DNA of 64,000 bases. It comes from Campylobacteraceae bacterium. GTDB lineage: Bacteria > Campylobacterota > Campylobacteria > Campylobacterales > Sulfurovaceae. The notes beneath the pieces are model-generated. The model saw only the letters and a program-made list of their open reading frames with translations, had not been told where the DNA came from and did no database searches. The stretch lies in the NCBI GenBank assembly GCA_027081405.1, contig JALWKO010000026.1:100-64099 (forward strand), read 5' to 3'. Positions 6,541 to 31,572 of this stretch are shown here, piece after piece (positions within the stretch are counted from its first letter, which is position 1; the number at the start of each line of letters is the position of its first letter). The position numbers and the translations under genes were made by a program.

Positions 6541-6558
6541 CGAATGCTTTGGCGTTCG
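6541..6558 (+). terminator. weak hairpin after the TRAP binding-protein gene (cgaatgc-tttg-gcgttcg)
   Basis: 6 of 7 bp stem directly after the stop codon. Confidence 0.3.
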
Positions 6559-6560
6559 TT

Positions 6561-6660
6561 ACGTCATTGGTCACTGGTCATTGGTCATTGGGGGGGTAAG
6601 GCGTGGAAGCATGCTTCTACTCCATTTTCCCAAATGACCAATGACTAATGACGAATGACC
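6561..6660. repeat. long inverted repeat built of TTGGTCA/CCAATGA heptamer arrays
   Basis: Left arm is gtcattggtcactggtcattggtcattgggg. Right arm is cccaaatgaccaatgactaatgacgaatgac. About 35 nt separates them. Confidence 0.85.
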
Positions 6661-7214
6661 AAAATCCGAAGGGTTTTATCTTGCTGACAAAACTTGAAAA
6701 GGTGACCGACAAGTTCATCGACGGGGTGGGGTATCTCACCGGGATTCTGATGATCTGGCTGATACTTAATGTCGCCTGGGACGTAATGATGCGCTACGTC
6801 TTCCACGATAGTTCCATCGCCATGCAGGAGCTGGAGTGGCATACATTCGCTGTGGTCATGCTCTACGGGACCGGGTACGCTCTGCGTCACAACGCCCACG
6901 TGCGGGTCGATTTCCTCTATGACCGGCTCTCACCCAGGGCACAGGCATGGATCAATATCTTGGGGACGATCTTTTTTCTCCTCCCGGTAGCGGTGCTGGT
7001 GATCTACGGATCGTGGGATTTCGTGATGGATTCGTACACGTCGCACGAGATCAGCGACGATCCGGGAGGGCTCCCTTACCGTTGGGTAATCAAGGCACAG
7101 ATTCCATTGGCTTTTGCTTTTTTGATATTGTGCGCATTTAATTTCATCCTCCATTATGTCAACGTGCTCCGTGGAGTGGAGGATCCCCTGCCGATCGAGG
7201 AGGATGAACTATGA
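6648..7214 (+). CDS. TRAP transporter small permease (DctQ family)
   Basis: 188 aa with 4 predicted TM helices. The first ~5 codons lie in the heptamer array, so the true start may be downstream. Confidence 0.85.
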   Translation: MTNDQNPKGFILLTKLEKVTDKFIDGVGYLTGILMIWLILNVAWDVMMRYVFHDSSIAMQELEWHTFAVVMLYGTGYALRHNAHVRVDFLYDRLSPRAQAWINILGTIFFLLPVAVLVIYGSWDFVMDSYTSHEISDDPGGLPYRWVIKAQIPLAFAFLILCAFNFILHYVNVLRGVEDPLPIEEDEL

Positions 7215-8557: not shown

Positions 8558-8886
8558 TTTGAATGAGGAGCGAGGCGTTGGGCGTTAGGAGTGAGGAGTG
8601 AAGGGGCGCCGCGTGGCGGCGCGGTTTGAATGAGAAATGAGAAATGAGTATAGAAATGAGAAATTTTGAGGTGTTGCTGCGCAACGCTTTTGATGACGGA
8701 TTTTGGATTTTGGATGCTGAATTTCGGTGCGTTGCGTTGCAACGCGTATTGTTGGAGCGGGAATAAATTCCCGCACGGCAGAGCTAAAGCCCTACATCCA
8801 ATATACCAATAATGTCGCCGAAGGCGACACCTCTTACGACTATCGACTATCGACTAGTGACTAATGCCGTCGCCGAAGGCGACACC
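8558..8886 (+). repeat. mosaic repeat element, full copy (heptamer arrays plus fixed hairpins)
   Basis: Modules in order: GAATGAG/GAGTGAG/AAATGAG arrays, ggcgccgcgtggcggcgc, gttgctgcgcaacgc, TTGGATT array, gcgttgcgttgcaacgc, gcgggaataaattcccgc, GTCGCCGAAGGCGAC (8814 and 8869), CGACTAT array. Confidence 0.9.
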
Positions 8887-9496: not shown

Positions 9497-10492
9497 ATGA
9501 AAAAAATCCTGCTCGCACTTGGGCTCGGCGCGGCGCTGAGCGTTTCGGCAGTGGCCGCGGAGTATGTCCTTAAGTTCAGCCATGTTGTCAGCCCCAACAC
9601 CCCCAAAGGGAAGGCGGCCGACTTTTTCGCCAAGCGCCTCGAAGAGCTCAGCCACGGTCGGATTGACGTACAGGTCTACCCCAACAGCCAGCTCTACAAG
9701 GACAGTGCGGTCCTCAAGGCGCTGAAACTCAATTCGGTCCAGATGGCCTGCCCCTCTTTCTCCAAGTTCGGCAAGATCGTTCCCCAGTTGGCCCTTTTCG
9801 ACCTCCCGTTCCTCTTCCGTGACCTGGATCATCTCCACCACGTCCAGGACAGCGAAGTGGGACAAAAACTCAAAGACATGGTCACCGCCAAAGGGTACGT
9901 GGCGCTCGATTTCTGGGACAACGCCTTCAAGCAGGTCACCAACTCCAAGCGGCCTTTGATCCATCCGAGCGATTTCAAGGGGCTGAAATTCCGGATCATG
10001 AGTTCCAAGGTCCTCGAAGCCCAGTTCAAGGCGGTCGGAGCGATCCCCCAAGTGATGCCCTTCTCTGAAGTCTATTCGGCCCTCCAGCAGGGGGTCATCG
10101 ACGGAGAGGAGAACACCAACTCCAACATCTACACCAAGAAATTCTACGAAGTGCAGAAATACATGACCGTCAGCAACCACGGCTATCTGGGGTATCTGGT
10201 GGTCATGAGCAAGAAATTCTGGGATTCGCTCCCGGACGATCTCAAAGCGGCGGTGAAACAGGCGATGAAAGAGGCCACCGCCAAAGAGCGGCAGTGGGCG
10301 ATCGAGCTGGATAAAAGCCAGTTCGCCAAGATCGAAGAGTACGCCAAAAAGACCGGAAAACTCCAGATCACCCGGCTGACCCCCGAGCAGGTAGCCGAGT
10401 GGCGCAAGGCGATGGAAGTGATCTACCCCGAGTTCTACGATCCCAAACTCATCGGCAAAGATCTCATCGAAGCGGCGATGAAGACCAAGTAA
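9497..10492 (+). CDS. dctP: TRAP C4-dicarboxylate-type substrate-binding protein
   Basis: 331 aa with a signal peptide. DctP-family N-terminus FSHVVSPNTPKG. SD aaggagag. Confidence 0.93.
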   Translation: MKKILLALGLGAALSVSAVAAEYVLKFSHVVSPNTPKGKAADFFAKRLEELSHGRIDVQVYPNSQLYKDSAVLKALKLNSVQMACPSFSKFGKIVPQLALFDLPFLFRDLDHLHHVQDSEVGQKLKDMVTAKGYVALDFWDNAFKQVTNSKRPLIHPSDFKGLKFRIMSSKVLEAQFKAVGAIPQVMPFSEVYSALQQGVIDGEENTNSNIYTKKFYEVQKYMTVSNHGYLGYLVVMSKKFWDSLPDDLKAAVKQAMKEATAKERQWAIELDKSQFAKIEEYAKKTGKLQITRLTPEQVAEWRKAMEVIYPEFYDPKLIGKDLIEAAMKTK

Positions 10493-10517
10493 TCTTTCGC
10501 GCTTTGGGCGCGAAAGA
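10493..10517 (+). terminator. perfect 10 bp hairpin tctttcgcgc-tttgg-gcgcgaaaga after dctP
   Basis: Begins directly after the stop codon. Likely an intra-operon attenuator or mRNA-stabilising hairpin. Confidence 0.55.
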
Positions 10518-10520
10518 TCG

Positions 10521-10589
10521 TTTACGTGTTAAGTGGCACGTGTCAAGAAGGCCTTTTTACTTAGTACATAACACGTAACACTTAGCACG
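10521..10589. repeat. imperfect long inverted repeat of ACGTGTT/TAACACG-type heptamers
   Basis: Left arm acgtgttaagtggcacgtgtcaag pairs with the reverse complement of the right arm at about 18 of 24 positions. Confidence 0.7.
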
Positions 10590-10603
10590 CAAGAAGGGGA
10601 GCG

Positions 10604-12493: not shown

Positions 12494-13003
12494 GTGGACG
12501 AGCGGAATTTCGAACGGGCCATCGTCGCGGTGTCGCTGCTGATCGTGGGGATCGGCATTTTCCGGGCGTTGCATCATGCTTCGGATCGGAAACATCCCTC
12601 GGCACCTCCTGCCGAAGAGCGAAACGTCTCGGTGGCATTTGTGCATCCTTCCGGGATCCGCCCCGACTCCCCCGAAGGGATCTACCGCTACGTAGTGGAC
12701 GTGATCGAGCACGGTTCGGCCCGCTTCCATTTCCCGGGTGGGACGATGGAAGGGGGATACCTCCCCCCCGCCGAGGCCCGCAAGGTGGCCTGCTACGTGC
12801 TGCAGCTCGGGGGACACCGCTGCCCCGTGCCGCCGTCGCCGGATGCGCAAATGTACTACACCGGCGCCTGTGCCGGATGCCACGGCAGCGATGGCAAGGG
12901 GCTCGGCGGCCGCTATCCCGACCTGACCCGTCCCCGGTTGCTGGGGATCGAGGAGGCGCTGCGGAAGCGCTCACTTTCCAGCGGTGGAAACGGGACGCAG
13001 TAG
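12494..13003 (+). CDS. membrane-anchored monoheme c-type cytochrome
   Basis: 169 aa. GTG start 5 nt after dctM, an N-terminal TM helix and a CAGCH motif. Confidence 0.6.
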   Translation: MDERNFERAIVAVSLLIVGIGIFRALHHASDRKHPSAPPAEERNVSVAFVHPSGIRPDSPEGIYRYVVDVIEHGSARFHFPGGTMEGGYLPPAEARKVACYVLQLGGHRCPVPPSPDAQMYYTGACAGCHGSDGKGLGGRYPDLTRPRLLGIEEALRKRSLSSGGNGTQ

Positions 13004-14431
13004 ATACGAAGGGCCCATATTGACGCTGTGGTAGACCGTCACGCCGTATTTGCGGACGTAGTATCGCAGCAGGAGCCGCTGCAGTGCGGGTTCGACGGAG
13101 GGGATGAACCAGCCGTCGTTGCTGATGGCGACGATCCGTTCGGGTCGGTCGGCATAGAGCCGTTCGCTGGTCGCTTCGTAGCATACCGCCGAACGCCAGC
13201 GTCTGCCTCCGATGGTGAAATCGGTCGGTCGGGACGCGGGGACGTAATCGGGCGCTCCGTCGAAAAAGATCCGGTTGATCCATTTCCCGGCCCAGCGGGG
13301 GAGGGGGTTGGTCTCCCCGAAGGGGACGAGGACGATTTTGTCGGCGACGGTGGCGTTCCCGTCATGGAAAAACCAGGCGGAGTTGCGGTTGACGCCCTTT
13401 TTCGTATCGTAATAGAGCGCCCCCAGGACGATATCGATCCGGTGGGAGCGCCGTTTGATCGCATCCAGAAGGGCGGGGTGGCGATTGAGGAAGAGGGGGA
13501 GGACCGATTCGGGGAGGATCACCAGCGAGGCGTTGCGCTCGATCGCCCGGTCGATCGCACCGAGGACCCCGTCGATCTGTCCGTTGAGGTTCGCGGGATC
13601 CCATTTGGCTTCGACCGGGACGCGGGTCGAGACCAGCTCCACCGCTCCGGTGGGATCGGCAGGGAGTGCCTCCACTTTCTGCGGGTGCCAGGTTGCGGCG
13701 AAAAGGAGCAGGACCAACACCCCTTCCCCCAGCCGATGCCGTGGGGCACGGCGATGGAGGATCATATCGCCCAACAGAAACGAAGCGCCCAGGAAAAGGG
13801 CGAAGCGGAGCTTGTCCACCCCGAAGGGGGTATGCACGAGGATCAGTTCGGGTTTGAACCAGTCGAAGCCGAAAGGGTGGACGTAGCTCATACCCAAAAG
13901 CGCCAGCGCTTTTGGGTATGAGCTACTAATGAGCAGTGAGCAGTGAGCAGTAAGCAGTTTCGGTATGCGTTGCTTTGCAACGCTCCTGTTCAAAGGGATA
14001 ATGTCGCGGACTCTCCCCAATGACCAATGACCAATGACCAATGACTTTTCTCTTGTGACTTGCAACCTGCGACCGAACCGTAGGCACCGACCGCCCAATC
14101 GTTCGGCGAGCCAGGCGAAGAGCCAGAAATAGATGCCGTAGACCAGCGCCACGGCGAGGACGACGAGGGGGATGACCCAGGGGTGGCCGTAGTGCAGGAA
14201 GCTCATCGCGATCCACCAGAACCAGAGCCCCCCGATCCCCAGTCCGAATCCGAACCACACCCTCCGGTCGCAGTGCGGCAGAAGGGCGAATACGGCGACG
14301 GCGGCGAGCGTTTCGAGAATCGGCAGAGGATGTCTCCACCACGCAAGATAGACGAAGAGCGAAGCGGCCAGAGCCAGAAGCCAGCCCGCTGTTATCCTCC
14401 CGGTGCTAAAATAGTGCGAAATTTTTCCCAT
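12971..14431 (-). CDS. lnt: apolipoprotein N-acyltransferase carrying an in-frame repeat insertion
   Basis: Nitrilase-type triad context (ILPESV, KIVLVPFGE, AVCYEAT) and an N-terminal TM domain. Start taken at MGKISHYF (ATG at 14431, SD ggag). The longer track ORF to 14740 overlaps yajC. Confidence 0.85.
   Translation of the reverse strand: MGKISHYFSTGRITAGWLLALAASLFVYLAWWRHPLPILETLAAVAVFALLPHCDRRVWFGFGLGIGGLWFWWIAMSFLHYGHPWVIPLVVLAVALVYGIYFWLFAWLAERLGGRCLRFGRRLQVTREKSLVIGHWSLGRVRDIIPLNRSVAKQRIPKLLTAHCSLLISSSYPKALALLGMSYVHPFGFDWFKPELILVHTPFGVDKLRFALFLGASFLLGDMILHRRAPRHRLGEGVLVLLLFAATWHPQKVEALPADPTGAVELVSTRVPVEAKWDPANLNGQIDGVLGAIDRAIERNASLVILPESVLPLFLNRHPALLDAIKRRSHRIDIVLGALYYDTKKGVNRNSAWFFHDGNATVADKIVLVPFGETNPLPRWAGKWINRIFFDGAPDYVPASRPTDFTIGGRRWRSAVCYEATSERLYADRPERIVAISNDGWFIPSVEPALQRLLLRYYVRKYGVTVYHSVNMGPSYLLRPVSTAGK
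13902..14095 (+). repeat. truncated mosaic repeat copy located inside the lnt coding sequence
   Basis: GCAGTGA array, gcgttgctttgcaacgc hairpin, four CCAATGA units and a gtgacttgcaacctgcgac tail. Borders are approximate. Confidence 0.8.
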
Positions 14432-16303: not shown

Positions 16304-17275
16304 ATGGAACTGTTCAGCTACAAAAAACCGATCAACTTCATGGGGGCGAGCCGGAAATTCGGCCTCCTCTCATTGGTTCTGGTGCTCCTCTCCTGGGGGC
16401 TGATCTTCACCAAAGGATTCAACTACGGGATCGATTTCGCCGGCGGGACGCTGATCCAGCTCCGCTACGAGGGGAAAGCTCCACTGCAAAAAATCCGCGA
16501 GGATCTCAAAAAGACCCCCGCGTTCAAGGATGCCACCGTCACCTTCTTCGGGAGCGAAAACGAAGTGGTGATCCGGACCAAAAGCAGCTCCAAGACGGTG
16601 GGGAAGGACATGGGGGACCGGGTCCGTACTCTCCTGGCTGATACGGGGAAATTCGAGGTGCGACGGGTCGACATGGTGGGCCCCAAGATCGGAAACGAGC
16701 TCAAGGAAAAGGGGCTTACGGCGATGGTGCTGGCGATCCTGGGGATCCTGATCTACGTTTCGGTCCGGTTCGAGTGGCGCTTCGCCCTGGCCTCGGTCCT
16801 GGCGCTGGTGCACGACGTGAGCATCGCCATGGGGGCGATCGTTTTGGCCGGCGTGGAGGTCAACCTCGACATCCTGGCGGCACTGCTGACCCTACTGGGA
16901 TACTCCCTCAACGACACCATCATCGTCTTCGACAGGATCCGGGAAGGCTTGCAGAAGATCAAGAACCCCGATCTGCCCGAGATCATCAACGAGTCGATCA
17001 CCCGGACTCTCTCCCGGACGGTGCTGACCTCGCTGACCACTTTCTTCGTGGTCCTTTCGCTCTTCCTCTTCGGCGGGGAGATCATCTACGGCTTCAGCTT
17101 CACCATGCTGGTGGGGATCATCGTGGGGACCTACTCCTCGATCTTCATCGCTTCGCCGTTGCTGATGTGGCTGGGCTTCGACGTCAAAGCCTGGCGGGCC
17201 AAAGAGGCCGAGAAGCGGAAGCGGGAGAAAGAAAAAGAGAAAATGCGGGCCATGTACGAGCAGGGAACGCTCTAA
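16304..17275 (+). CDS. secF: protein translocase subunit SecF
   Basis: 323 aa with the SecF motif GIDFAGGT and 6 TM helices. Confidence 0.95.
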   Translation: MELFSYKKPINFMGASRKFGLLSLVLVLLSWGLIFTKGFNYGIDFAGGTLIQLRYEGKAPLQKIREDLKKTPAFKDATVTFFGSENEVVIRTKSSSKTVGKDMGDRVRTLLADTGKFEVRRVDMVGPKIGNELKEKGLTAMVLAILGILIYVSVRFEWRFALASVLALVHDVSIAMGAIVLAGVEVNLDILAALLTLLGYSLNDTIIVFDRIREGLQKIKNPDLPEIINESITRTLSRTVLTSLTTFFVVLSLFLFGGEIIYGFSFTMLVGIIVGTYSSIFIASPLLMWLGFDVKAWRAKEAEKRKREKEKEKMRAMYEQGTL

Positions 17276-17276
17276 T

Positions 17277-17307
17277 GGGTGAGGAGTGAGGAGTGAGGAG
17301 TGCGGAG
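17277..17307 (+). repeat. GAGTGAG heptamer array
   Basis: gggtgaggagtgaggagtgaggagtgcggag, directly after the secF stop. Confidence 0.85.
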
Positions 17308-18477: not shown

Positions 18478-19874
18478 TGCGCCTCGGAGTGCTTCTCGTC
18501 GCCCTCTGGGCGTGGGGGTGGGCACTGGTCCCCGCCGAAGTGGCGCAGTTCCTCCAGAGAGACGGGATCGATCCTTCGCAGGTGAGCCTGATCGTCGCCC
18601 CCACCAAAGGCTCCGAACCTCTGATGGTCCACCTCCCCGACGAACCCCGCCGCCCGGCGTCGGTGATCAAGCTCCTGACCACCTACGCCGCATTGCTGGA
18701 GCTCGGTCCCGATTTCCGCTGGCCGACCCGCTTTTTCGTCACCGGGCGGCTGCGCGGCGGGGTGTTGCGGGGGGATCTGATCGTCAAAGCCTACGGCGAT
18801 CCGACCCTCTCCCGGCGGGATCTGGACCGGATCGCAGAGCGGATCCGCCGGATGGGGATCCGCGAAATCACCGGCGATCTGATCGTCGACGAGAGCTTTT
18901 TCCGTACGGGATCGAAAATCAGTTCGGGGTTTGACAATCATCCCCACAGCGAGTACAACGCCATGCCCGAAGCGTTGATGTTCGAGGACCACCTCAGCAC
19001 CATCGTCGTCGATACCCGCGGCGGTGAGGCACGGGTACACAAAGGGATCCCCGATCCGGGATACCGGCTCCTCAACGAAGTGACGGTACGGAGCGACAAA
19101 CGGTGCCGCGGGCGTTACGGCTGGCCGGCGGTACGCTTCGAAGAAGAGGGGGATACTCCGATCGTCCGCGTGACGGGGACCCTCTCGAGCCGCTGCCGGA
19201 CCCCCCGGGTGATCCGACAGGTGATCGACCACCCCTACACCGCGTTCTACGGAGCCCTCAAAGAAGCGTTCGCAAAGAGAGGGATCGCCTTTTCGGGGCG
19301 CTTGCGGCTGGGGAAGGTTCCCGCCGGGGCCCGTCCTTTGCTGACCCACTACTCCCGCCCTTTGCTGCAGATTGTCGCCAAGACCAACAAGCACTCCAAC
19401 AACCTCTACGCCCGCCACATTTTCCTCCTCCTGGGGGCCAAACGCTACGGAGCTCCGGCCACGGTGGAGAAAGGGCGCAAAGCGGTGCGCGAGATCCTCG
19501 AATCACGCGGGATCCTCGACGATGCGACGGTGCTGGACAACGGGTGCGGACTGAGTCGCCGTACCCGCACCACCGCCCGAACCCTCTACCGGCTCTTAGA
19601 GGACGCCTATCGGCACTTTGCCTGGAGGTGGATGGGAGCCCTTTCGATCGCGGGGATCGACGGGACGCTGCGGCATCGCTTCGTCCGATCGCCGGCCCGC
19701 CGGCACGCCTGGATGAAGACCGGGACCCTCAAAGACGCCAAAAACATCGCCGGATACGTCAAAGGGCGCAGCGGCAGGCTCTATACGGTGGTGATCTTCT
19801 ACAACGGCCTCGCCCGCTGGAAAGGGCGGCAGTTCGAAGATCAGCTCGTCGAGTGGATCGTGAAAAACAAATGA
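18477..19874 (+). CDS. D-alanyl-D-alanine carboxypeptidase/endopeptidase (PBP4, peptidase S13)
   Basis: 465 aa with SxxK (SVIK), SxN (HSNN) and KTG (MKTGT) motifs. Signal peptide present. Confidence 0.85.
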   Translation: MRLGVLLVALWAWGWALVPAEVAQFLQRDGIDPSQVSLIVAPTKGSEPLMVHLPDEPRRPASVIKLLTTYAALLELGPDFRWPTRFFVTGRLRGGVLRGDLIVKAYGDPTLSRRDLDRIAERIRRMGIREITGDLIVDESFFRTGSKISSGFDNHPHSEYNAMPEALMFEDHLSTIVVDTRGGEARVHKGIPDPGYRLLNEVTVRSDKRCRGRYGWPAVRFEEEGDTPIVRVTGTLSSRCRTPRVIRQVIDHPYTAFYGALKEAFAKRGIAFSGRLRLGKVPAGARPLLTHYSRPLLQIVAKTNKHSNNLYARHIFLLLGAKRYGAPATVEKGRKAVREILESRGILDDATVLDNGCGLSRRTRTTARTLYRLLEDAYRHFAWRWMGALSIAGIDGTLRHRFVRSPARRHAWMKTGTLKDAKNIAGYVKGRSGRLYTVVIFYNGLARWKGRQFEDQLVEWIVKNK

Positions 19875-19900
19875 GGAATGAGGAATGAGAAATGAGAAAT
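19868..19900 (+). repeat. AAATGAG/GAATGAG heptamer array
   Basis: caaatgaggaatgaggaatgagaaatgagaaatg. The first unit supplies the PBP4 stop codon. Confidence 0.85.
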
Positions 19901-19949
19901 GTTTGATTTCCTGTTTTGAATTCCCGATTTCCTCCTCTCAAGGGGAGAA

Positions 19950-21080
19950 ATGAATTTCGAAACCTATCCGTTTGAAAAACTGACCCGGCTTCTCGAAGGG
20001 ATCGTGCCAAACGGTGCGTTCGACCCGATGAGCCTCACGATCGGGGAGCCCCAGTTCGAGACGCCGGCGTTCATCCGGCAAGAACTCTGCGACGCCTCGG
20101 CGCAGCTGAACAAATACCCCAAGACGGCGGGGGAAGCGTACCTCAAAGTGGCGATGCTGCGGTATTTGAAGGAACGCTTCTCCCTCGAGCTGACGTCGGA
20201 TCAGCTCATCCCCACCTTCGGAACCCGGGAGCTGCTGTTCAATTTCCCCCAGTTCTATCTCCACGGCAGACCCGATCCGGCGATGGCCTTCCCCAACCCT
20301 TTCTACCAGATCTACGAAGGGGCGGCGATCGCCGCGGGGGCGCGGATCGTCCACCTCGATCTGACCCCCGAAAACGGTTTTCAGCCCCCGATGGACGAAA
20401 CGCTGCTGCGGGAGTGCGATCTGGTGATCCTCAACACCCCCAACAACCCCACCGCGTCGGTGATCCCCTTCGAGCGGATGCAAGAGTGGGTGGAGCTCTC
20501 ACTCAAGTACGATTTTCTGCTGCTCAACGACGAGTGCTACGTCGATTTGTGGATGGACGAGCCGCTCCCTTCCCTTCTGGAGGCGAGCGTCGCCGCGGGC
20601 AACCCCGGGTTCCGCAACGTGGTCGTGGTCAACTCGGTTTCCAAACGCTCCAGCGCCCCGGGGCTGCGCAGCGGGTTCATCGCCGGGGACCGGGAGGTGT
20701 TGCGGGAGTATCTGCGCTACCGCACCTACGTCGGATGCGCCTCCCCGCTCCCTCTGCAGCGGGCCGCGGCGGCGGCCTGGGGTGATCAGGACCACGTGGA
20801 GACTTTCCGCCGGAAATATCGGCGCAATTTCGAGCTGGCGCGTGAGATCCTGGGGGTCGAACCTCCCGAAGCCACCTTCTATGTCTGGCTGGAGGTGGGC
20901 GACGAGCGGACCTTTACCCGGGAGCTCTATCGGCGGTATAATCTCAAAGTCCTCCCCGGTTCTTTCCTGGGGCGAAACGGTGCGGGCGAAGGCTTCGTCC
21001 GCCTGGCACTGGTCTATGAAGAAGAGCCGATGCGGGAGGCGCTGGAGAGGGTGGCGGCTTTTTTGAAAGATTTTGGATGA
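19950..21080 (+). CDS. class I PLP aminotransferase (succinyldiaminopimelate/aspartate aminotransferase-like)
   Basis: 376 aa with a PLP-lysine context NSVSKRSSAPGLRSGF. Confidence 0.85.
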   Translation: MNFETYPFEKLTRLLEGIVPNGAFDPMSLTIGEPQFETPAFIRQELCDASAQLNKYPKTAGEAYLKVAMLRYLKERFSLELTSDQLIPTFGTRELLFNFPQFYLHGRPDPAMAFPNPFYQIYEGAAIAAGARIVHLDLTPENGFQPPMDETLLRECDLVILNTPNNPTASVIPFERMQEWVELSLKYDFLLLNDECYVDLWMDEPLPSLLEASVAAGNPGFRNVVVVNSVSKRSSAPGLRSGFIAGDREVLREYLRYRTYVGCASPLPLQRAAAAAWGDQDHVETFRRKYRRNFELAREILGVEPPEATFYVWLEVGDERTFTRELYRRYNLKVLPGSFLGRNGAGEGFVRLALVYEEEPMREALERVAAFLKDFG

Positions 21081-21114
21081 TGGATTTTGGATTTTGGATT
21101 TTGGATTTTGGATT
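21071..21114 (+). repeat. TTGGATT heptamer array (about 6 units)
   Basis: ttttggatgatggattttggattttggattttggattttggatt. Overlaps the last codons and the stop of the aminotransferase gene. Confidence 0.9.
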
Positions 21115-21152: not shown

Positions 21153-21779
21153 ATGATGAATCAAAACAACAGAGAAGAGGCGATCGATCTGGAAGCGCTC
21201 AAAAAAGACCCCCAGTTTCAGGAGAACCTGAAGCGGCTGGAGGGGGAGATGAAAGCCGAGCGCTCCATCGCCAAAGGGTATCAGCTGCTGGATGCGAAGC
21301 TCTTGATGGAGGCGGAGCAGGAGGAGATCAACGAGATCTTCACCTTCATCGTCAATGAAGCCTTCGATCGTCTGGCGGAGCTGCTCAGCCGGGGGGAAAA
21401 ATTCGACATGGCCGATCCGGAGCAGTGGGCCACGGCCCGGGCGGTCTACGAGCACGGGATCCAGCGCTACAGCGAAAACGACCTCAAGGGGGCCAGGGAG
21501 ATCTTTTTGATCCTCTATTACCTCATCACCGAGAAGGAGTTGCGCGACGCAATGATGATCCACTCGGCGGCGGTGGCGGCGGGGCACGACTTTGACAGTT
21601 TCATCGAGAATTTGGCCGACGTGCGGTCGATCAACCCCAACGACGCCACCGCCTTTTTCATCACCAGTTTCGTCCAGCCGCCGGATATTCTGCTGCAGAT
21701 GTTCGCCAAAGAGGTGGCCGAAGGGGAGGCTTTGCTGGCGAAAATGGAGGAGAACAGCAAAGCTTCGAATGAGGAATGA
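21153..21779 (+). CDS. hypothetical acidic helical protein
   Basis: 208 aa with good coding periodicity. No family recognised. The C-terminal SNEE and the stop are encoded by a GAATGAG array. Confidence 0.6.
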   Translation: MMNQNNREEAIDLEALKKDPQFQENLKRLEGEMKAERSIAKGYQLLDAKLLMEAEQEEINEIFTFIVNEAFDRLAELLSRGEKFDMADPEQWATARAVYEHGIQRYSENDLKGAREIFLILYYLITEKELRDAMMIHSAAVAAGHDFDSFIENLADVRSINPNDATAFFITSFVQPPDILLQMFAKEVAEGEALLAKMEENSKASNEE

Positions 21780-21878
21780 GGAATGAGGAATTCGGAATTC
21801 GGGCGTATCGAGGTACGCCGCTTCGATACTATCGACTATCGACTAACGACTAGCGACTGTGCCGCCTCCGGCGGCACC
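21767..21878 (+). repeat. partial mosaic repeat (GAATGAG array, CGACTAT array, gtgccgcc-tcc-ggcggcac hairpin)
   Basis: Read directly between the hypothetical gene and murC. Confidence 0.85.
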
Positions 21879-21889: not shown

Positions 21890-23206
21890 ATGAAAATCCA
21901 CTTCATCGGGATCGGGGGGATCGGACTTTCGGCACTGGCGAAATTCCTGGCGGGGCAGGGGCACACCATCAGCGGCAGCGACATGCGCCAAAGCGAGATC
22001 ACCGACGATCTGGCGCTCAACTACGGGGCCAAGATCACGATCCCCCACCACCCCGACGCGGTGGAGGGGGCCGAGAGGGTGATCTATTCGGCGGCGGTGC
22101 GCCCCACCAACGTGGAGTATCAGCGGGCCCGGGAACTGGGGATCGAACTGCTCAGCCGCAAGGAGGCGCTTCGGTTCATCCTGGGAGACAAAGAAGTCTA
22201 CGCCGTGGGCGGGGCCCACGGCAAGAGCACCACCTCGGCGATGCTGGCGGCACTCCTGCCCGATACCAACGCACTCATCGGCGCCATCAGCAAAAGCTTC
22301 GGCTCCAACGTCCGGAGCGCTCCCAACGACAAAGTGGTCTTCGAAGCCGACGAGAGTGACGAGAGTTTCCTCAACTCCAACCCCCGCCTGGCGATCGTCA
22401 CCAACGTCGAGCCCGAGCACATGGAGTATTACGGCTACGATCTGGACCGGTTCTACGGTGCCTACCGGAAATTCCTCGACCTGGCCGAGATCCGGGTGAT
22501 CAACGCCGAAGATCCTTTCCTGGGATCGCTGGAGATCGACGCAGTGCGGCTTTTCCCCAGCCGGGATCTGCGCAACGTGGAGTATTCGCTCGTCGAGGGC
22601 GAGCCCCATACCCGCTTCGAGCTTCGCGATCTGGGGAGCTTCGAGGTTTTCGGCTTCGGAGAACACATCGCCCTGGACACGGCGCTGGCGATCCTGGCGG
22701 CCAGGGAGTTGGGGGAGGATGTGGAGGATCTGCGTGAGCGGCTGCGGGACTACCGGGGGATCAAGAAGCGCTTCGACATCATCCAGAACGACCCTGACTG
22801 CGTCGTCGTGGACGACTACGGCCACCACCCCACCGAGATCGCCGCGACCCTGGAGGCGCTGCGGACGTTCCGGAAGATGCGGGGACTGCCGAAACTCAAA
22901 GTGATCTGGCAGCCGCACAAATACACCCGGACCCTGGACAACCTCAAAGGGTTCGTGGAGTGTTTTTCAGGGGTGGACGAGCTGGTGATCCTCCCCATCT
23001 GGTCCGCCGGGGAGATCGAAATCCCCATCGACCTCAAGGGGGCCTTCAGCCGCTACGAGCCGATCATGGCCGAACGGGTCACCCGGGAAGACGGAGTCGT
23101 CAAGATCCTGGACGAGAAATCGCAGGTGATGCGGGAATTCCGCGAAGGACTCATCGTCGCTTTCGGCGCGGGGGATATCACCTATCAGATACGAGGGATC
23201 AAGTGA
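21890..23206 (+). CDS. murC: UDP-N-acetylmuramate--L-alanine ligase
   Basis: 438 aa with N-terminal IHFIGIGGIGLSALA and the Mur ligase P-loop GAHGKSTT. Confidence 0.95.
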   Translation: MKIHFIGIGGIGLSALAKFLAGQGHTISGSDMRQSEITDDLALNYGAKITIPHHPDAVEGAERVIYSAAVRPTNVEYQRARELGIELLSRKEALRFILGDKEVYAVGGAHGKSTTSAMLAALLPDTNALIGAISKSFGSNVRSAPNDKVVFEADESDESFLNSNPRLAIVTNVEPEHMEYYGYDLDRFYGAYRKFLDLAEIRVINAEDPFLGSLEIDAVRLFPSRDLRNVEYSLVEGEPHTRFELRDLGSFEVFGFGEHIALDTALAILAARELGEDVEDLRERLRDYRGIKKRFDIIQNDPDCVVVDDYGHHPTEIAATLEALRTFRKMRGLPKLKVIWQPHKYTRTLDNLKGFVECFSGVDELVILPIWSAGEIEIPIDLKGAFSRYEPIMAERVTREDGVVKILDEKSQVMREFREGLIVAFGAGDITYQIRGIK

Positions 23207-23460
23207 AGGGGGGAGTGAGAGTCGGTAGTCGTGGCGCCGTTGGCACAGTCATTGGTCATTGGTCATTGGTCATTGGGGGCAGGGCTTCAGCCCTGCATGC
23301 GGGACTAAAGTCCCGCCTCCAAAAGAAAGCGTTGCGAAGCAACACCCCAAAACCATTCCTCATTAAAAAATTGTTATTAGTTGCTGGTTATTCATTACTA
23401 GTTTCCAATCTTCGGTTCCTCATTCCTCATTTCTCATTCCTCACTCCTCACTCGCACGGA
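23207..23460 (-). repeat. mosaic repeat element, full copy in reverse orientation
   Basis: The reverse complement shows the same module order as 8558-8886: AATGAG arrays, gttgcttcgcaacgc, ggaggcgggactttagtcccgc, gcagggctgaagccctgc, four CCAATGA units. Confidence 0.9.
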
Positions 23461-23468
23461 GTGCGAAT

Positions 23469-25676
23469 ATGAGCCGTACACTTCCCGAAAAACTCGATCT
23501 GGGCGGGTATCTGGAGTCGTTCACCTCCTTTTTCGCCCGGCCCAAGCCGGTAGTGATGGAGGGAGACGCCGGGCTGCACCACCGCTTTCTCACCGCTTTG
23601 TCCAACGTACAGATCCCCGAACCTCCACAGGTGCCCACAATGGAGGATCGGCTGATGCGCCTGGGCAAACAGGGGGTGCTGGCTCTGGAGGAGATCTTCG
23701 ATTTCATCCGGATGATCCGCTATTTCAACCGTCTGCGGGCGATGACCCTCCCCGAACCGGCGGGGAGCTGGATCGCCGGGATCGAAGTCCCCGAAGCGGT
23801 GGCCGAGATCGGATCCTATTTCACCGACGAGGGGGAGCTCAGCCCCGAAAAGGAGCCCGAACTGGCCGACATCGCCGAGGCGCTGCGGCGCAACCGCGAA
23901 GCGATCCGCGAATCGCTCTACGCCCTGACCCGCTCCCGGGATCTGGCCGACTATCTGGTCGACACCCAGATCCACCTCCAAAACGGCGAAGAGACGCTGC
24001 TGGTGCGCGGGGGCTTCTCCGCGGTGCTCAAGGCGACGGTAGTGGGGCGCTCTTCGGGGGGATTTTTCTACGTGATCCCCGATCGGGTGCGATCGCTCAA
24101 GGACCGGGAGGCGGAGCTGCTGAGCCGCCGGGAGGCGATTCTATGGCGCTACGCCCGGGAGTTTTCACAGGTGCTGCACCGCTGGGAGCGTTTCCTGCGC
24201 TATCTGGATCGGCAGTTCGATCGGTTCGACCACTACCAGGCTCGGATCCGTTTCGCCAAAAGCCGTGATTACGAATTTGTCCTTCCCCATGACGGCAAAG
24301 AGGTGATCCTGGGGGGATTCGCCCACCCCGCCATCGCCGATCCGGTCCCCGTGGACATCGCGGTCAAACGCCCCATCGTCCTCATCACCGGGGTCAACGC
24401 GGGGGGAAAAACGATGCTGCTCAAATCGATTCTCGCCGCCGTCTGGCTCTCCCGCCATCTCCTTCCGTTCCGCTGCGATCCCCAACGGACGAAAATCGGC
24501 CGGTACAAATCGATCGAAGCGATCGTCGAAGATCCCCAGTCGGTCAAAAACGACATCTCCACCTTCGCCGGGCGGATGGTGGAGTTTTCCCGGCTCTTCC
24601 GGATTCGCGACGCGATCGTGGGGGTGGACGAGATCGAGCTGGGGACCGATGCCGACGAGGCGGCGAGCCTCTTTCGGGTGCTGCTCGAGGAGCTTATGAA
24701 ACGGGAGATCACCTTCGTGGTGACCACCCACCACAAGCGGCTGGCCTCTCTCCTGGCGGGGGAGGAAACGGTGGAACTCGTCGCGGCACTCTACGACGAG
24801 GAGCGCCGCCGCCCCACCTATACCTTCCTGGAGGGGAGCATCGGCAAGAGCTACGCCTTCGAGACCGCCGAGCGCTACGGGATCCCCCGAAATGTGGTCG
24901 AGAAGGCCCGAACCCTCTACGGAGAGGACAAAGAACGCCTCAACGAGCTCATCGAACATTCGACACGGTTAGAGGCGCAGATGCGCGCCCGCCTCGCCGA
25001 GGCGGAGCGGCTCACCGAGGAGCTGCGGCGCAAGGAGGAGCACCTCAAAGAGCTCGAAGAGGCGATGCGCGAAGAGCAGCGCAAGGTGCTGGCCACCCTG
25101 GAGAACCGCTACAACGCGGCGACCAAACGGGCCCTGGCGGCGCTGAAAAAAGCCGAAGACGCCGAAGCGAGACGGCTGCTCAACGAAGCTCACCGCCACA
25201 AAAGCCGGGCCCGGCTTCGGGAGGCGGAGCCCGAGCTGCCACCCCTCAAACCCGGTGACCGGGTCCGATACCGGTCCCATACCGCCGAGATCCTTTCCCT
25301 CAAAGAAAAGGAGGCGATGATCTCCGTGGACGGAATGAAGATCCGGGTCCCCCTCAAGGAGCTCAGACCGGCCCCCGAAACTCCGAAGCCCAAGGCCCCT
25401 CGCCCCAAAAAAAGCACCGACATCCGGGTCGAAAAAAGCGATCGGGCCGCACTGCACATCAAACTGCTCGGGATGCGTGCCGAGGAGGCCGAGGAGGCAC
25501 TCGACGCGTTCCTCTCCGACGCGCTGCTGCACGGAATCTCGGAGGTGGAGATCATCCACGGCACCGGGACGGGGGTCCTGGCCCGGGTGGTCAGCGAATA
25601 CCTCAAACGCCATCCCCGGGTGAAGCGCTTCTATCGGATGCCGGGCAATATGGGGGTGACGGTGGCGGAGTTGTAA
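23469..25676 (+). CDS. mutS2: endonuclease MutS2 (MutS domain V ATPase plus C-terminal Smr)
   Basis: 735 aa with Walker A GVNAGGKT and a C-terminal Smr domain (LHIKLLGMRAEEA...IIHGTGTGVL). Confidence 0.93.
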   Translation: MSRTLPEKLDLGGYLESFTSFFARPKPVVMEGDAGLHHRFLTALSNVQIPEPPQVPTMEDRLMRLGKQGVLALEEIFDFIRMIRYFNRLRAMTLPEPAGSWIAGIEVPEAVAEIGSYFTDEGELSPEKEPELADIAEALRRNREAIRESLYALTRSRDLADYLVDTQIHLQNGEETLLVRGGFSAVLKATVVGRSSGGFFYVIPDRVRSLKDREAELLSRREAILWRYAREFSQVLHRWERFLRYLDRQFDRFDHYQARIRFAKSRDYEFVLPHDGKEVILGGFAHPAIADPVPVDIAVKRPIVLITGVNAGGKTMLLKSILAAVWLSRHLLPFRCDPQRTKIGRYKSIEAIVEDPQSVKNDISTFAGRMVEFSRLFRIRDAIVGVDEIELGTDADEAASLFRVLLEELMKREITFVVTTHHKRLASLLAGEETVELVAALYDEERRRPTYTFLEGSIGKSYAFETAERYGIPRNVVEKARTLYGEDKERLNELIEHSTRLEAQMRARLAEAERLTEELRRKEEHLKELEEAMREEQRKVLATLENRYNAATKRALAALKKAEDAEARRLLNEAHRHKSRARLREAEPELPPLKPGDRVRYRSHTAEILSLKEKEAMISVDGMKIRVPLKELRPAPETPKPKAPRPKKSTDIRVEKSDRAALHIKLLGMRAEEAEEALDAFLSDALLHGISEVEIIHGTGTGVLARVVSEYLKRHPRVKRFYRMPGNMGVTVAEL

Positions 25677-25679
25677 CGG

Positions 25680-25971
25680 AGAATGAGGAACGAGGAGTGA
25701 GGGATCTTTGGGCGCCGTGATACGGCGCGTTTTGAATGAGAAATGAGAAAATAGAAATGAGAAATTTCGGTGCGTAGCGTTCGCTACGCGCTCAATGTTG
25801 GATTTTGGATTCTGGATGTTGGATTGCGGGGTGTTGCGTTGCAACACATATTTTTGGAGGCGGGAATTCATTCCCGCACTGCAGGGCTAATGCCCTGCAT
25901 CCAGTACACCAATGTACCAATAGACCAATGACGTCGCCGAAGGCGACATCACTTGTGACTATTTTTTATCT
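25680..25971 (+). repeat. mosaic repeat element, full copy
   Basis: Same ordered modules, ending in GTCGCCGAAGGCGAC at 25933. Confidence 0.9.
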
Positions 25972-26077
25972 CTTCATTTGTTTTTCTTTGTTCGCGCGAT
26001 AAAGAAAAACGAAACGAAGCAAAGAAAAAGAAAACGCGAGGGACTGGCGTCTTGGTGGAGATGCCATGCGTGGTTGA
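25972..26077 (+). repeat. ~106 nt purine-rich two-hairpin module, copy 1
   Basis: Near-identical to 35144-35249 (cttcatttgtttttctttgttcgcgcgaYaaagaaaaacgaaacgaagcaaagaaaaagaaaacgcgagg...). Confidence 0.85.
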
Positions 26078-26165
26078 TTGAGGAGTGAGGAATTTTGAAG
26101 CGCCATGATAGGGTGCGTTTTGAATGAGAAATGAGAAATTGTGGGGCGTTGCTGTGCAACGCATA
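26078..26165 (+). repeat. partial mosaic repeat (GAGTGAG and AAATGAG arrays, gcgttgctgtgcaacgc hairpin)
   Basis: Read directly. Confidence 0.8.
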
Positions 26166-26225
26166 TTTTGTAAAGATGCGATTTCTGTTTCGCAATCACA
26201 AAGGGGCCTTCAAAGTCGCATTCCA

Positions 26226-26405
26226 GTATAATCCCAAATCATGCAGTAGCCACTACGTCATCTGCATCGATCATCGATGGCATGGGCGACACATCCAAAG
26301 CCTCGACGCACCCTCCGGGTGCGCCTACGTTTTGGCTGTGCACCCCTACACACCGAGCATCGACACATCTGACGCACTTTCTACTGCATGGTTTGGGATA
26401 ATCCC
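26226..26405. mobile_element. MITE-like element with ~22 nt terminal inverted repeats, copy 1 (~180 bp)
   Basis: Left end ataatcccaaatcatgcagtag matches the reverse complement of the right end (attatcccaaaccatgcagtag). The ~70 nt core is identical to 40205-40458. Confidence 0.75.
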
Positions 26406-28202: not shown

Positions 28203-28368
28203 CAACTAGTAACTAGGAATGAGGAATGAGGAATTTTGGGGCGCTGCTGCGCAACGCGTGTTTATGGAGGCGGGACTTCATTCCCGCAAATTGTAGGCTC
28301 AAAGCCCAGCTCCCAATGACCAATGACTAATGACTAGTGACCCATAACGTCGCCGAAGGCGACACTTC
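28203..28368 (+). repeat. mosaic repeat element, compact full copy
   Basis: GAATGAG array, gcgctgctgcgcaacgc, ggaggcgggacttcattcccgc, ggctcaaagccc, CCAATGA array, GTCGCCGAAGGCGAC at 28349. Confidence 0.9.
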
Positions 28369-28910: not shown

Positions 28911-28944
28911 ATTCCTCATTCCTCATTCCTCATTCCTCATTCCC
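28911..28944 (-). repeat. GAATGAG heptamer array (4-5 units, minus-strand sense)
   Basis: attcctcattcctcattcctcattcctcattccc, directly after the argJ stop. Confidence 0.9.
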
Positions 28945-30134: not shown

Positions 30135-30322
30135 CGTTCGCTCCTGGATGACGAAGTGGCACGATTGTAGCATGAAGCGTGAGATTTTGTGGTTTGAGGG
30201 GTTCTTAAGTCGAATCGATCCATAATGATAAGGGGAAGGAGGAGAAGATGCTTCATTCGTTTATCGATTCAGTGGACACTGGTCATGAGGCAGGTATCGG
30301 ATCTGAAATCTAAGGATCGGAT

Positions 30323-31204: not shown

Positions 31205-31332
31205 TCATCGTTACAACGGAATGGAGGAAAGGGAATATGATCAAACAGTGGGATTGTCGAGAAACCGAACGATCTTTGCCGGTGAATCCGGTGGAGTGAA
31301 ACGGTACAAAAAACCAAAAAAGGAGGTGAATC

Positions 31333-31542
31333 ATGAAAACACATCGAAAAACTCTTGGAACAGTCATTATGGCGGCAACTTTGTTGGGTATCGGAGCGTT
31401 GCATGCCGTCGGTTTTCGAAGCGGACATTCGTCCACCAAAACGATGTGCTACAAAGCATGTAGCAAACATTATGATCACAATAGTTCTTCGTTCAAAGAC
31501 TGCATGCGTGATTGCATCCATACCGGTGTGGTTAAAGAATAG
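31333..31542 (+). CDS. small secreted protein with twin CX3C motifs
   Basis: 69 aa. Strong SD aaggagg 7 nt upstream. Signal peptide, then CYKAC and CMRDC. Confidence 0.6.
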   Translation: MKTHRKTLGTVIMAATLLGIGALHAVGFRSGHSSTKTMCYKACSKHYDHNSSSFKDCMRDCIHTGVVKE

Positions 31543-31572
31543 AATCACATTGTCGGGATAAAGGGGGGAGAA

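Follow-up and report, generated by a model that had tools for sequence, protein, structure and literature searches.

What are the repeats that lie between the genes of a Nitratifractor-like bacterium, and by which rules are they placed? The question is raised by a 64,000-nt stretch of the genome of a Campylobacteraceae bacterium (assembly GCA_027081405.1, contig JALWKO010000026.1, positions 100 to 64,099 of the forward strand; hereafter the window), where spacers such as the one at 8558-8886 are mosaics of tandem heptamers and short GC-rich hairpins. An original prediction, made by reading the sequence without database searches, described these mosaics as a single composite repeat family. The present analysis covers the 64 kb of the host genome and about 150 kb from its relatives. 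The best explanation of the data is a lineage-specific manner of building spacers in high-GC Nitratifractor-like Campylobacterota, within which one cassette has recently been amplified in a species group.

Heptamer Arrays and a Fixed Order of Modules

Arrays of period 7, as detected by Tandem Repeats Finder (TRF), number 35 in the window against 0-5 in 20 dinucleotide-preserving shuffles, and 29 in its 8.9 kb of noncoding DNA against 0-2 in shuffles. The period spectrum of the window has 35 rows for period 7 and 4 each for periods 6 and 8, and 811 of the 987 bases in arrays are noncoding. The 15-mer GTCGCCGAAGGCGAC is found in six exact copies (at 8814, 8869, 25933, 28349, 35097, and 35381), for an expectation of 0.5, and none of 100 shuffles reaches six. 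The number and positions of these copies had been given exactly in the original prediction, and its statement that this is not random simple-sequence DNA is upheld by the shuffle controls for both the 15-mer and the arrays.

The modules follow each other in a fixed order. From 5' to 3' one finds purine-rich arrays of the NAATGAG type, a GCGCCGY/RCGGCGC hairpin (hairpin 1), TTGGATT arrays, a GYGTTGY-nnn-RCAACRC hairpin (hairpin 3), a TTGGAGGCGGGA..TCCCGC hairpin (hairpin 4), a GCAGGGC..GCCCTGC hairpin (hairpin 5), CCAATGA arrays, the hairpin formed by the 15-mer, and finally CGACTAT or CTTGCGA arrays. This order is co-linear in all six core-bearing copies of the window and also in two relatives (the metagenome contig L128 and Nitratifractor sp. 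L134), single modules being absent or decayed in several copies. By repeat finding and alignment, the six core-bearing copies have in common a segment of about 85 nt at 62-85% identity, flanked by arrays of the same types in the same order. The core itself is about 72 nt long and contains three hairpins; it is part of a cassette of 150-330 nt that occurs at a density of approximately one copy per 10 kb. The fixed order that had been predicted is thus found in six co-linear full cores in 64 kb. Including isolated arrays, repeat material amounts to about 2.5 kb, or 4.0% of the window, in agreement with the roughly 4% of the original estimate. That the family fills most intergenic spacers was an overstatement: among the 29 spacers of at least 50 nt in an approximate gene map of the window, 13 contain arrays and 5 contain the core.

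The modules are also found independently of each other, as arrays alone, as hairpin 3 alone, or as hairpins of the 15-mer type with other sequences. The recurring families of spacer hairpins are GYGTTGY-nnn-RCAACRC, GCGCCGY-nnn-RCGGCGC, GCGGGA..TCCCGC, GCAGGGC..GCCCTGC, and GTCGCC-gaa-GGCGAC. Hence, the idea of one composite element is adequate for the co-linear cassette but not for the modules that occur separately, nor for the spacers of relatives, which use other units and hairpins. Because these different units and hairpins follow the same rules in orthologous spacers, the repeats are better described as a clade-wide grammar of spacers together with one amplified cassette.

Placement and Polarity Relative to Genes

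Placement and polarity were counted at seven loci from six genomes. Arrays are present in 37 of the 63 spacers that are downstream of at least one gene (co-directional or convergent) and in none of the 11 divergent spacers (Fisher p = 4e-4). When an array begins between -22 and +25 nt from a stop codon, it is typically purine rich: in 33 of 39 such arrays, purines exceed 60% of the sense strand. The typical units at these sites are GAATGAG, GAGTGAG, GAGAATG, AATTGAG, and TGAAGAG, all of which resemble Shine-Dalgarno sequences and nearly all of which contain a stop triplet. Since 7 is not a multiple of 3, an array of stop-containing heptamers closes all three reading frames. Arrays that end 0-35 nt before a start codon have a different composition, with <40% purine in 11 of 19 and >60% in 2 of 19 (stop versus start, Mann-Whitney p = 3e-7).

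Three array sites of the window are associated with genes on the minus strand, and they follow the same polarity; the rule therefore tracks transcription and not replication. One (28911-28943; coordinates are those of the window, and repeats are read on its plus strand unless the minus strand is mentioned) consists of 4.7 units of GAGGAAT on the minus strand, which is the sense strand of argJ, and lies directly after the argJ stop. The second, an AATGAGT/AATGAGG array at 41324-41396, is pyrimidine rich on the sense (minus) strand and ends 22 nt before the start of murB. The third (50877-50946) has 4.3 units of GAGTGAG and 3.9 of CTCTTCC, partly complementary to each other, in the spacer between genes for an FAD oxidase and a phosphoesterase, both on the minus strand. 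Where junctions are very short, the spacer consists of nothing but the array, which provides both the ribosome-binding site and the start codon. This is the case at positions 6897 and 9986 of the relative L132, and at 17279-17307 of the window, where four units of GTGAGGA constitute the entire 17-nt junction between secF and an aminotransferase gene and provide a Shine-Dalgarno-like sequence and a GTG start.

Overall, spacers downstream of a gene begin at the stop codon with purine-rich, stop-containing heptamers, followed by one or more GC hairpins, several of them with T-runs. Then come mixed or pyrimidine-rich heptamers and a GC hairpin with a GAA or TTC loop, after which there is either a ribosome-binding site or the stop of a convergent gene. 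The hairpins have GC stems of 6-8 bp and loops of 3-4 nt. Four of the five core-bearing spacers come after the last gene of a co-directional run, three of these four being between convergent genes, and in two of the convergent cases the 15-mer is 5 nt from the opposing stop.

Maintenance and Folding of the Hairpins

At the seven loci, perfect 7-bp GC-rich hairpins are found 26 times in co-directional spacers and 22 times in all coding sequence, and spacer hairpins with a single transition mismatch are only 9, against the 26 perfect ones. In the alignment of the core (ten sequences), both partners have changed in five base pairs; shuffles give 2.4, with five attained by 9 of 500, and the covariation score is above those of all 500 shuffles and of all slid controls. 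With ten sequences, this covariation is supportive rather than conclusive of conserved pairing. The hairpin that precedes the ribosome-binding site of murC varies in sequence among genomes while its structure is kept: GTGCCGCC-tcc-GGCGGCAC, GCCGCC-ttc-GGCGGC, GCTGCC-ttc-GGCAGC, and GCTCCCC-aaa-GGGGAGC.

On the strand of the cassette itself, T-runs come after hairpins 1 and 3; at 35278, for instance, GCGTTGC-tgc-GCAACGC precedes T8. Both pass a loose scan for terminators (at least 5 T within 8 nt, starting 0-2 nt past the stem), with tracts that are offset or interrupted, and the region as a whole has 35 such sites against 20.0 +/- 3.8 in shuffles. Like Rho-independent terminators, these hairpins combine a GC stem-loop with a T-rich tract at the ends of gene runs. 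Unlike them, they have short (7-bp) stems, 3-nt loops, and a T-tract that is usually offset and interrupted, and they come in series of up to six between repeat arrays.

In a few spacers, two arrays form the arms of a long stem. In the window, this happens in a dctP-dctQ spacer, where four units of GTCATTG are followed by four of AATGACC (6563-6662), and the segment 6541-6665 folds with -66.7 kcal/mol (z = -10.8). Similar stems are found in L132 (17770-17912, z = -9.5) and L130 (6505-6600, z = -7.8). Complementarity between arrays holds for this subset (6541-6647; L132 17795-17927; L130 6512-6606). In several spacers, raw folding energies favor the sense strand.

Distribution among Relatives

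The window, which is part of a metagenome-assembled genome, has a GC content of 59% and codes for cbb3 oxidase, TRAP transporters, SecDF, AddAB of the Campylobacterota type (AddA NF010485), ArgJ, and ribosomal proteins. A protein identical to its MutS2 is present on contigs of the metagenome-assembled genome GCA_027023385.1 and of ENA metagenomes labeled JOHN19-1. The closest named homologs of MutS2 are from Nitratifractor sp. (82% and 79%), and those of AddB are from Nitratifractor sp. and N. salsuginis (54-50%). From these homologs and the gene set, the host is a member of the Campylobacterota in the genus-level neighborhood of Nitratifractor. The phylum is in agreement with the original description of the gene content as Campylobacterota-like.

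Relatives were sampled as mutS2 or addB neighborhoods (L129 to L136), to which is added L128, the metagenome contig that came from a scan of metagenomes with the 15-mer plus an ACNTCTT tail. Period-7 arrays are most numerous in L129 (MutS2 84% identical to that of the window, GC 58.7%), with 19 in 20 kb. There are 11 in 22 kb in each of L136 (MutS2 82%, GC 58%), L134 (MutS2 82%, GC 57%), and L130 (MutS2 79%, GC 60.5%). Six in 22 kb are found in L132 (MutS2 64%, GC 58.7%) and in L133, which is the type strain N. salsuginis DSM 16511 (CP002452.1; AddB 50%, GC 53.8%). Arrays are therefore found throughout the high-GC clade, including this type strain, and are nearly absent from the lower-GC relatives L131 (MutS2 73%, GC 45%), with one minimal array, and Sulfurovum sp. 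NBC37-1 (L135; AddB 42%, GC 44%), with one.

The core has a narrower distribution than the arrays. A covariance model finds it in full in the window (six copies, 72-92 bits), L128, L129, and L134 only, all of which match by construction, as they are the sequences from which the model was built, and it finds no new full copy in the 22-kb samples of L130, L132, N. salsuginis, and L136. In conclusion, the habit of combining heptamers and hairpins is clade-wide, and the cassette is young and limited to a species group. The metagenome scan gave four contigs, of which only L128 has the cassette. The other three are unrelated contigs of 38%, 54%, and 65% GC with the 15-mer hairpin and its ACNTCTT tail (L125 12645-12666, L126 857-878, L127 80-101); one of these copies is found immediately past a tRNA gene, and another is part of a tandem hairpin repeat of a different kind. 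Perhaps the C-GAA-G hairpin is a convergent, widely used motif. A scan of a genome collection with TGGAGGCGGGANNNNNTCCCGC gave at least 120 matches, which is the chance level, with no relative among the matches listed. Rfam gave no match at the gathering score and only chance-level matches at E <= 1, including two plant miRNA-precursor models on the hairpins of paired arrays. Similarly, blastn against plasmids and phages gave no match, and the literature searched contains nothing that links Nitratifractor with tandem repeats, nothing comparable for Campylobacterota, and no reference to the assembly or sample accessions.

Conserved Spacers and Rapid Turnover

The window and L129, which represent two species, can be aligned over 9.8 kb, with 79.7% identity. 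Within this alignment, mutS2 is 80.3% identical, with 62.5% at codon position 3, and the corresponding value for murC is 67.2% at position 3. The 262-nt spacer between murC and mutS2, which contains an inverted cassette, is 97.7% identical, without indels and with equal unit counts in both arrays. The identity profile is at 98-100% over 23260-23440 and falls to 82% and then to 70% within the first 120 nt of mutS2. The spacer preceding murC is 91.8% identical, and the other spacers of the alignment are 52-56% identical, yet they are also built from arrays. A hidden small gene would be a possible reason for the conservation of the murC-mutS2 spacer, and none was convincing; the candidates are an open reading frame (ORF) running from murC along the stop-free strand and ORFs of at most 35 aa.

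Elsewhere, the repeats change rapidly. The ATTCCTC array at 28911-28943 is two units (14 nt) longer in another contig of the same species (L001, 15443-15456), where only four differences, this one included, are found in 16 kb. In five relatives, orthologous spacers keep the layout and have different sequences. For example, the spacer between the S13 peptidase and aminotransferase genes has, depending on the species, units of AATGAGG; GGAATTA and CTAGTTA; GCAGGTA and TGCTACC; or AATGAGG alone. Orthologous spacers also differ among species in the presence of the core.

Copies of the Cassette and Isolated Repeats in the Window

The first copy (8558-8886) lies between dctM, whose stop is at 8551, and a convergent Sel1 gene, whose stop is at 8889. 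Its arrays start with TGAGGAG/AATGAGA, continue with GGATTTT, and include CGACTAT at 8837-8863. Its hairpins are GCGCCGC-gtg-GCGGCGC (8606-8622), GCGTTGC-gtt-GCAACGC (8729-8745), and GCGGGAA-taaa-TTCCCGC (8757-8774); hairpin 5 is decayed, there are two 15-mer hairpins (8814 and 8869), and the core scores 75.2 bits at 8727-8797. The inverted copy on the minus strand (23207-23460) fills the conserved murC-mutS2 spacer with four units of GTCATTG, hairpins 5, 4, and 3, and five units of TTCCTCA that end 18 nt ahead of the mutS2 ATG (core 87.2 bits, 23277-23347). The most complete copy (25680-25971) begins 4 nt past the mutS2 stop and has every module, with hairpins at 25712, 25772, 25831, 25860, and 25880, the 15-mer at 25933, and a core of 92.5 bits at 25829-25900. 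A short copy occupies the spacer of two convergent genes (28203-28368; core 75.2 bits, 28239-28312), without the first hairpin and the TTGGATT array, and its 15-mer (28349) ends 5 nt short of the stop of a DUF465 gene (28369).

Two further copies follow addB, where the original prediction had placed two copies at 34690-35143 and another at 35250-35454. The first of these (34690-34892) begins 2 nt past the addB stop, with a truncated hairpin 5 and a core of 80.3 bits at 34816-34887, and is a copy as described. What comes next (34893-35143) is instead a variant cassette with arrays of TGAAGAG and GATGTTG, the hairpin GCGTTGC-ttt-GCAACGC (35002), an AATGACC array, and the 15-mer (35097); here, CAAAGAGG..CGAAGCCCCG (the CAAAGAGGATCGAAGCCCCG module) and CAAACGA units take the place of hairpins 4 and 5. 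This variant resembles the spacer after mutS2 in L129 (76% identity). The copy at 35250-35454 extends to the stop (35455) of a convergent cytochrome c gene, and has hairpin 3 followed by T8, decayed hairpins 4 and 5, the 15-mer at 35381, then CTTGCGA units (core 71.6 bits, 35276-35347).

The earlier list did not include the paired arrays of the dctP-dctQ spacer (6563-6662), the partial copy of 26068-26166, or a module of 113 nt found after two of the copies. The partial copy has GAGTGAG units, a decayed first hairpin, an AATGAGA array, and GCGTTGC-tgt-GCAACGC followed by a T-run, with a weak match to the model at 26144-26224. The 113-nt module is AT rich, with a 12-bp stem (GTTTTTCTTTGT..ACAAAGAAAAAC) and an A-rich tail, and its two occurrences (25965-26077 and 35137-35249), each after a composite copy, are 92% identical. 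Each occurrence of this module is in turn followed by a further partial cassette.

Among the isolated arrays, the one at 19869-19901 (AAATGAG/GAATGAG) overlaps the stop of the S13 peptidase gene, and 6.6 units of GATTTTG (21069-21114) are followed by the hairpin GTGTCGC-ttc-GCGATAC. The spacer upstream of murC (21767-21877) contains 3.6 units of GAATGAG, the hairpin GGCGTA..TACGCC, 4.4 units of ACTATCG, and the GTGCCGCC-tcc-GGCGGCAC hairpin directly before the ribosome-binding site. At 61649-61705, the hairpin GCGTTG-tgaag-CAACGC precedes 4.6 units of ATTCCTC, and the array ends 16 nt before a start codon at 61722.

Other unusual sequences were found in the window. The dctP-dctQ spacer of the second TRAP system (10492-10603) has an 11-bp perfect hairpin (ATCTTTCGCGC..GCGCGAAAGAT) and a second long, imperfect stem of GTGTTAA/GTAACAC-like units (z = -4.9 on the plus strand and -6.6 on the minus strand), with no array called by TRF. 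An element of about 180 nt is present in two copies, 90-94% identical (at 26225-26405 and 40200-40460), that end with CGCACCC-tcc-GGGTGCG and a T-run, as a canonical terminator would look. The two copies lie upstream of a TPR-like gene and between rpsI and murB, and a piece of the element is conserved in L132 (19403-19484). It could be a small RNA, one that has no match in Rfam. Finally, 1.8 kb of lower GC (about 52%) between argJ and rpmB (30174-31963) contain ORFs without Pfam match, and the counterpart site in relatives is empty or has a potassium-channel gene.

Repeats within Genes, Spurious Reading Frames, and Assembly Breaks

The sequence at 13902-14095 had been taken for a truncated spacer copy; it is in fact an in-frame insert within lnt, the gene for apolipoprotein N-acyltransferase (ORF 12971-14431, minus strand). 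Read on the plus strand, it has four units of TGAGCAG, the hairpin GCGTTGC-ttt-GCAACGC (13967-13983), and four units of CCAATGA. The insert as a whole (13883-14099) leaves the ORF open and adds 49 codons relative to L130, in the orientation in which the reverse strand of the repeats is free of stop triplets. At its beginning is an inverted duplication, perfect over 20 bp, of the native coding sequence next to it (13883-13926), which is the mark of a fold-back or template-switch event. In both L130 (548-576) and L132 (651-674), other heptamer arrays occupy this site of lnt. In L129, 4.6 units of GATGGAA and 4.3 of TCCTCAC (16406-16485) are inside the ORF of the asparagine synthase gene asnB, which is 22 residues longer than its counterpart in L131, and these arrays resemble positions 50850-50946 of the window (77% identity).

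Because the reverse strand of stop-rich heptamers is free of stops, long spurious ORFs arise across spacers. An example is an ORF of 170 aa that runs from murC into mutS2 (22960-23472, plus strand). Two independent metagenome contigs of the same organism, L002 and L003, both end at position 25826, inside the composite copy that follows mutS2; hence, the cassette breaks assemblies.

Comparison with Known Intergenic Repeats

Tandem heptanucleotides in many short intergenic arrays are a feature of the STRR repeats of cyanobacteria, which have the classes CCCCAGT, TTGGTCA, and CAACAGT. The second of these is the class that Mazel and colleagues are said to have described in 1990. The CCAATGA unit is a rotation of the reverse complement of TTGGTCA, and tandem TTGGTCA is found in the window, L129, and L134. 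The equivalence of the two units that had been pointed out originally is confirmed by the sequence. In contrast with STRR, more than 15 different units are found here and most arrays have units outside these classes, CCCCAGT (STRR1) and CAACAGT (STRR3) are absent, and the host is a member of the Campylobacterota and not a heterocystous cyanobacterium. To our knowledge, neither a fixed set of interleaved hairpins nor a stop/start polarity such as that of the present arrays has been reported for STRR. The small dispersed repeats that Elhai and colleagues reportedly found in 2008 embedded in the heptamer arrays of Nostoc are likewise very short hairpin units inside tandem heptamers, and their presence too varies between orthologous sites of related genomes. 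The Nostoc repeats belong to another phylum and have other sequences, whereas here several distinct hairpins in fixed order form a larger cassette.

The foot of REP palindromes is a conserved GTAG/CTAC tetranucleotide, and it is in none of the consensus sequences of our hairpins. Nor do the copies have the traits of MITEs: they lack terminal inverted repeats and target-site duplications, their starts are arrays at a stop codon, and their ends are different arrays. In other respects, the family resembles REP/BIME and REPIN/RAYT systems (Bertels & Rainey 2011, PMC3116915), which also consist of repeated extragenic palindromes with conserved linkers in ordered mosaics and many diverged copies. 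As with REP/BIME, whose known roles are stabilization of mRNA 3' ends and termination, the sites are at the ends of putative operons and between convergent genes. The differences are that the palindromes here are perfect and only 15-19 nt long, and that heptamer arrays serve as linkers.

Direct repeats of TAACTGA occur in marine Beggiatoaceae, where they are just upstream of start codons, and in some Cyanobacteria and Bacteroidetes, and binding by S1, Csp, or CsrA has been proposed for them (MacGregor 2015, PMC4679880). These are also abundant intergenic heptamer arrays, of 2-6 units, with stop triplets, at transcribed leader or intercistronic sites, and with a proposed post-transcriptional role. 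There is no tandem TAACTGA in the window and six relatives, the nearest unit being TAACTAG in L129. The main class here (39 arrays) abuts stop codons instead, the start-side arrays form a pyrimidine-rich class 13-31 nt upstream, and the hairpin mosaic has no parallel in the TAACTGA study (MacGregor 2015, PMC4679880). In many bacteria, heptanucleotides are the commonest long simple repeats, which has been attributed to polymerase slippage (Mrazek et al. 2007, as cited in PMC4679880), and Chloroflexus has (GATAGRA)n repeats (PMC6749651). The novelty of the present family is in what it combines: many types of unit, a fixed set of hairpins, a stop/start polarity that is strict, a cassette that has been amplified, copies in frame within genes, and a host among the Campylobacterota. 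It is apparently a previously undescribed, lineage-specific variant of known bacterial intergenic repeats.

Possible Roles and Origins

From the location, polarity, hairpin maintenance, and conservation observed, we infer molecular roles in the transcript. The interpretation that we tentatively prefer, to which we give slightly less than an even chance from sequence alone, is that these repeats act as punctuation embedded in transcripts (for termination, 3'-end stability, and insulation of translation) and are made by slippage and fold-back copying, with amplification in the manner of BIMEs. Purine arrays on the stop side would end read-through translation in all frames and might hold ribosomes or offer Shine-Dalgarno sites. 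GC hairpins with U-runs would terminate transcription or attenuate it and would protect 3' ends, in either direction when genes are convergent. Pyrimidine arrays on the start side could hold ribosomes, or provide sites for them, through protein S1 and, together with the final hairpin, would frame the next ribosome-binding site. Paired arrays would occasionally give long stems, which are possible substrates for processing. The raw material would come from replication slippage and from fold-back or template-switch copying, and spread between spacers would proceed by recombination, without a dedicated transposase. The 20-bp inverted duplication at the lnt insert counts in favor of an origin by fold-back copying.

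Several observations weigh against such a role in RNA. Of about eight independent core copies, two (23207-23460 and L134 18720-18938) are antisense to the genes on either side. The T-runs start 1-4 nt past the stems, with interruptions, which is not how canonical terminators are built. Pairing of arrays within a spacer was rejected as a general rule, as the mean best complementarity is 3.9 of 7, against 3.8 when permuted (p = 0.29). Wobble pairs do not identify an RNA strand either: long stems have 53 G.U and 57 A.C, hairpins have 6 and 3, respectively, and the z-scores of whole spacers give no consistent advantage to the sense strand. An RNA role of the hairpins and a role in single-stranded DNA therefore look alike in sequence. 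In addition, work by Hirao and colleagues in 1994 is said to have found the C-GAA-G triloop unusually stable in DNA rather than in RNA.

This last point leads to the most serious of the rival explanations, which we still regard as unlikely, namely that the family is selfish DNA similar to REP/BIME or REPIN, whose hairpins are sites for a Y1 transposase of the RAYT type, or for another nuclease, encoded elsewhere in the genome, and whose effects on transcripts are secondary. C-GAA-G triloops are reportedly typical of stable DNA hairpins, and dispersed copies at 62-85% identity, some with decaying hairpins, together with a core whose presence varies among orthologous spacers, metagenome contigs that break within the cassette, and in-frame insertions in lnt and asnB, are all as expected for such DNA. 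A Y1_Tnp gene does exist between addB and addA in the sister genus, in Sulfurovum NBC37-1 (L135 12331-12912), with relatives named RayT by JGI. This lead was followed, and no link between that gene and the repeats of Nitratifractor could be established. There is no transposase in the 64-kb window or in about 130 kb of loci of the Nitratifractor clade, and the RayT-like gene of L138 (765-1292), the only one retrieved with a high-GC-like amino-acid composition, is flanked by unrelated repeats of about 240 nt without heptamers. These are tandem repeats on both sides of the gene on a 2.1-kb contig, and they contain a GGCGGG..CCCGCC hairpin as well as copies of the gene's 3' end. Furthermore, the copies have no terminal inverted repeats, target-site duplications, or GTAG head; polarity relative to genes and absence from divergent spacers would not be expected if spread occurred at the DNA level alone; and a mobile element leaves the 97.7% identity at an orthologous site unexplained.

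The strict period of 7 would be expected if the arrays were multivalent platforms for a ring-shaped or multidomain RNA-binding protein with a 7-nt register (similar to HutP, TRAP, CsrA, or S1) that controlled a genome-wide post-transcriptional regulon. HutP reads NAG triplets every 7 nt, and CsrA reads GGA motifs; GAG, GGA, or UAG cores recur in the stop-adjacent arrays. Unit number is exactly kept where the spacer is conserved, pyrimidine-rich arrays are 13-31 nt upstream of starts, and the binding of S1, Csp, or CsrA was proposed for TAACTGA arrays (MacGregor 2015, PMC4679880). However, units vary at orthologous sites (AATGAGG, GGAATTA, GCAGGTA, AGAATGG, AACTAGT), and such wide variation between spacers and species is hard to reconcile with a single sequence-specific reader. 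As, in addition, no candidate protein was found and copy number is polymorphic at one site, we consider this explanation improbable, even though it overlaps with the transcript punctuation that we prefer. A bolder extension of that punctuation, which seems to us more doubtful again, is a genome-wide, sequence-flexible code of operon punctuation that evolved in the Nitratifractor clade, in which arrays of defined polarity in a 7-nt register and a few kinds of GC triloop hairpin would be read by a dedicated factor and written by transposase-independent fold-back copying able to place cassettes in frame inside genes. Its reader could be a heptad-register protein binding RNA or single-stranded DNA, or the ribosome itself through tandem mimics of Shine-Dalgarno and anti-Shine-Dalgarno sequences. 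If such a code existed, it would set transcript ends, processing, and re-initiation.

Alternatively, the repeats might be a largely neutral by-product of a lineage-specific mutational bias (heptamer slippage and template switching at quasi-palindromes in noncoding DNA), with selection acting only on accidental terminators and ribosome-binding sites. Slippage is the cause to which the commonness of heptanucleotides among long simple repeats has been attributed (Mrazek et al. 2007, as cited in PMC4679880), and it would account for the two-unit polymorphism within a population and for the rapid turnover of units between species; the near-absence of arrays in the lower-GC L131 and Sulfurovum, the many core copies with decayed hairpins, and the fold-back duplication at the lnt insert are also consistent with this view, which overlaps with the punctuation reading too. 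It has little chance of being right, since it does not predict absence from divergent spacers or strong polarity on the sense strand. In addition, the conservation of some spacers far exceeds that of synonymous sites, there are 26 perfect hairpins for 9 with a single mismatch, and the same module order recurs across species. Lastly, the core could be a multicopy family of small-RNA genes with their own promoters, independent of the flanking genes, as its three compact hairpins with covariation, its best-conserved copy antisense to the neighbors, and the sRNA-like 3' end formed by hairpin 3 and its U-run might suggest, but this is very improbable given that the scanned region has no promoter-like site ahead of the cores, the U-run comes after the core's first hairpin instead of its last, Rfam has no match, hairpins 4 and 5 are broken in several copies, and cores are always within arrays that begin at a stop codon.

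Implications

The repeats affect the annotation of genomes in this clade, by breaking metagenome assemblies, by giving spurious ORFs on the stop-free strand, and by adding in-frame cassettes to lnt and asnB. More generally, intergenic DNA has been flooded by heptamers in scattered lineages (cyanobacteria, Beggiatoaceae, some Bacteroidetes, and Chloroflexus), and the cause has never been explained. The present family adds an unrelated phylum, and it has clear polarity, conserved hairpin partners, and a spacer whose conservation goes far beyond that of synonymous sites; this makes it a good system in which to separate a functional from a mutational origin. The same grammar is found in N. salsuginis DSM 16511, which is cultured and completely sequenced, and this makes it open to experiment.

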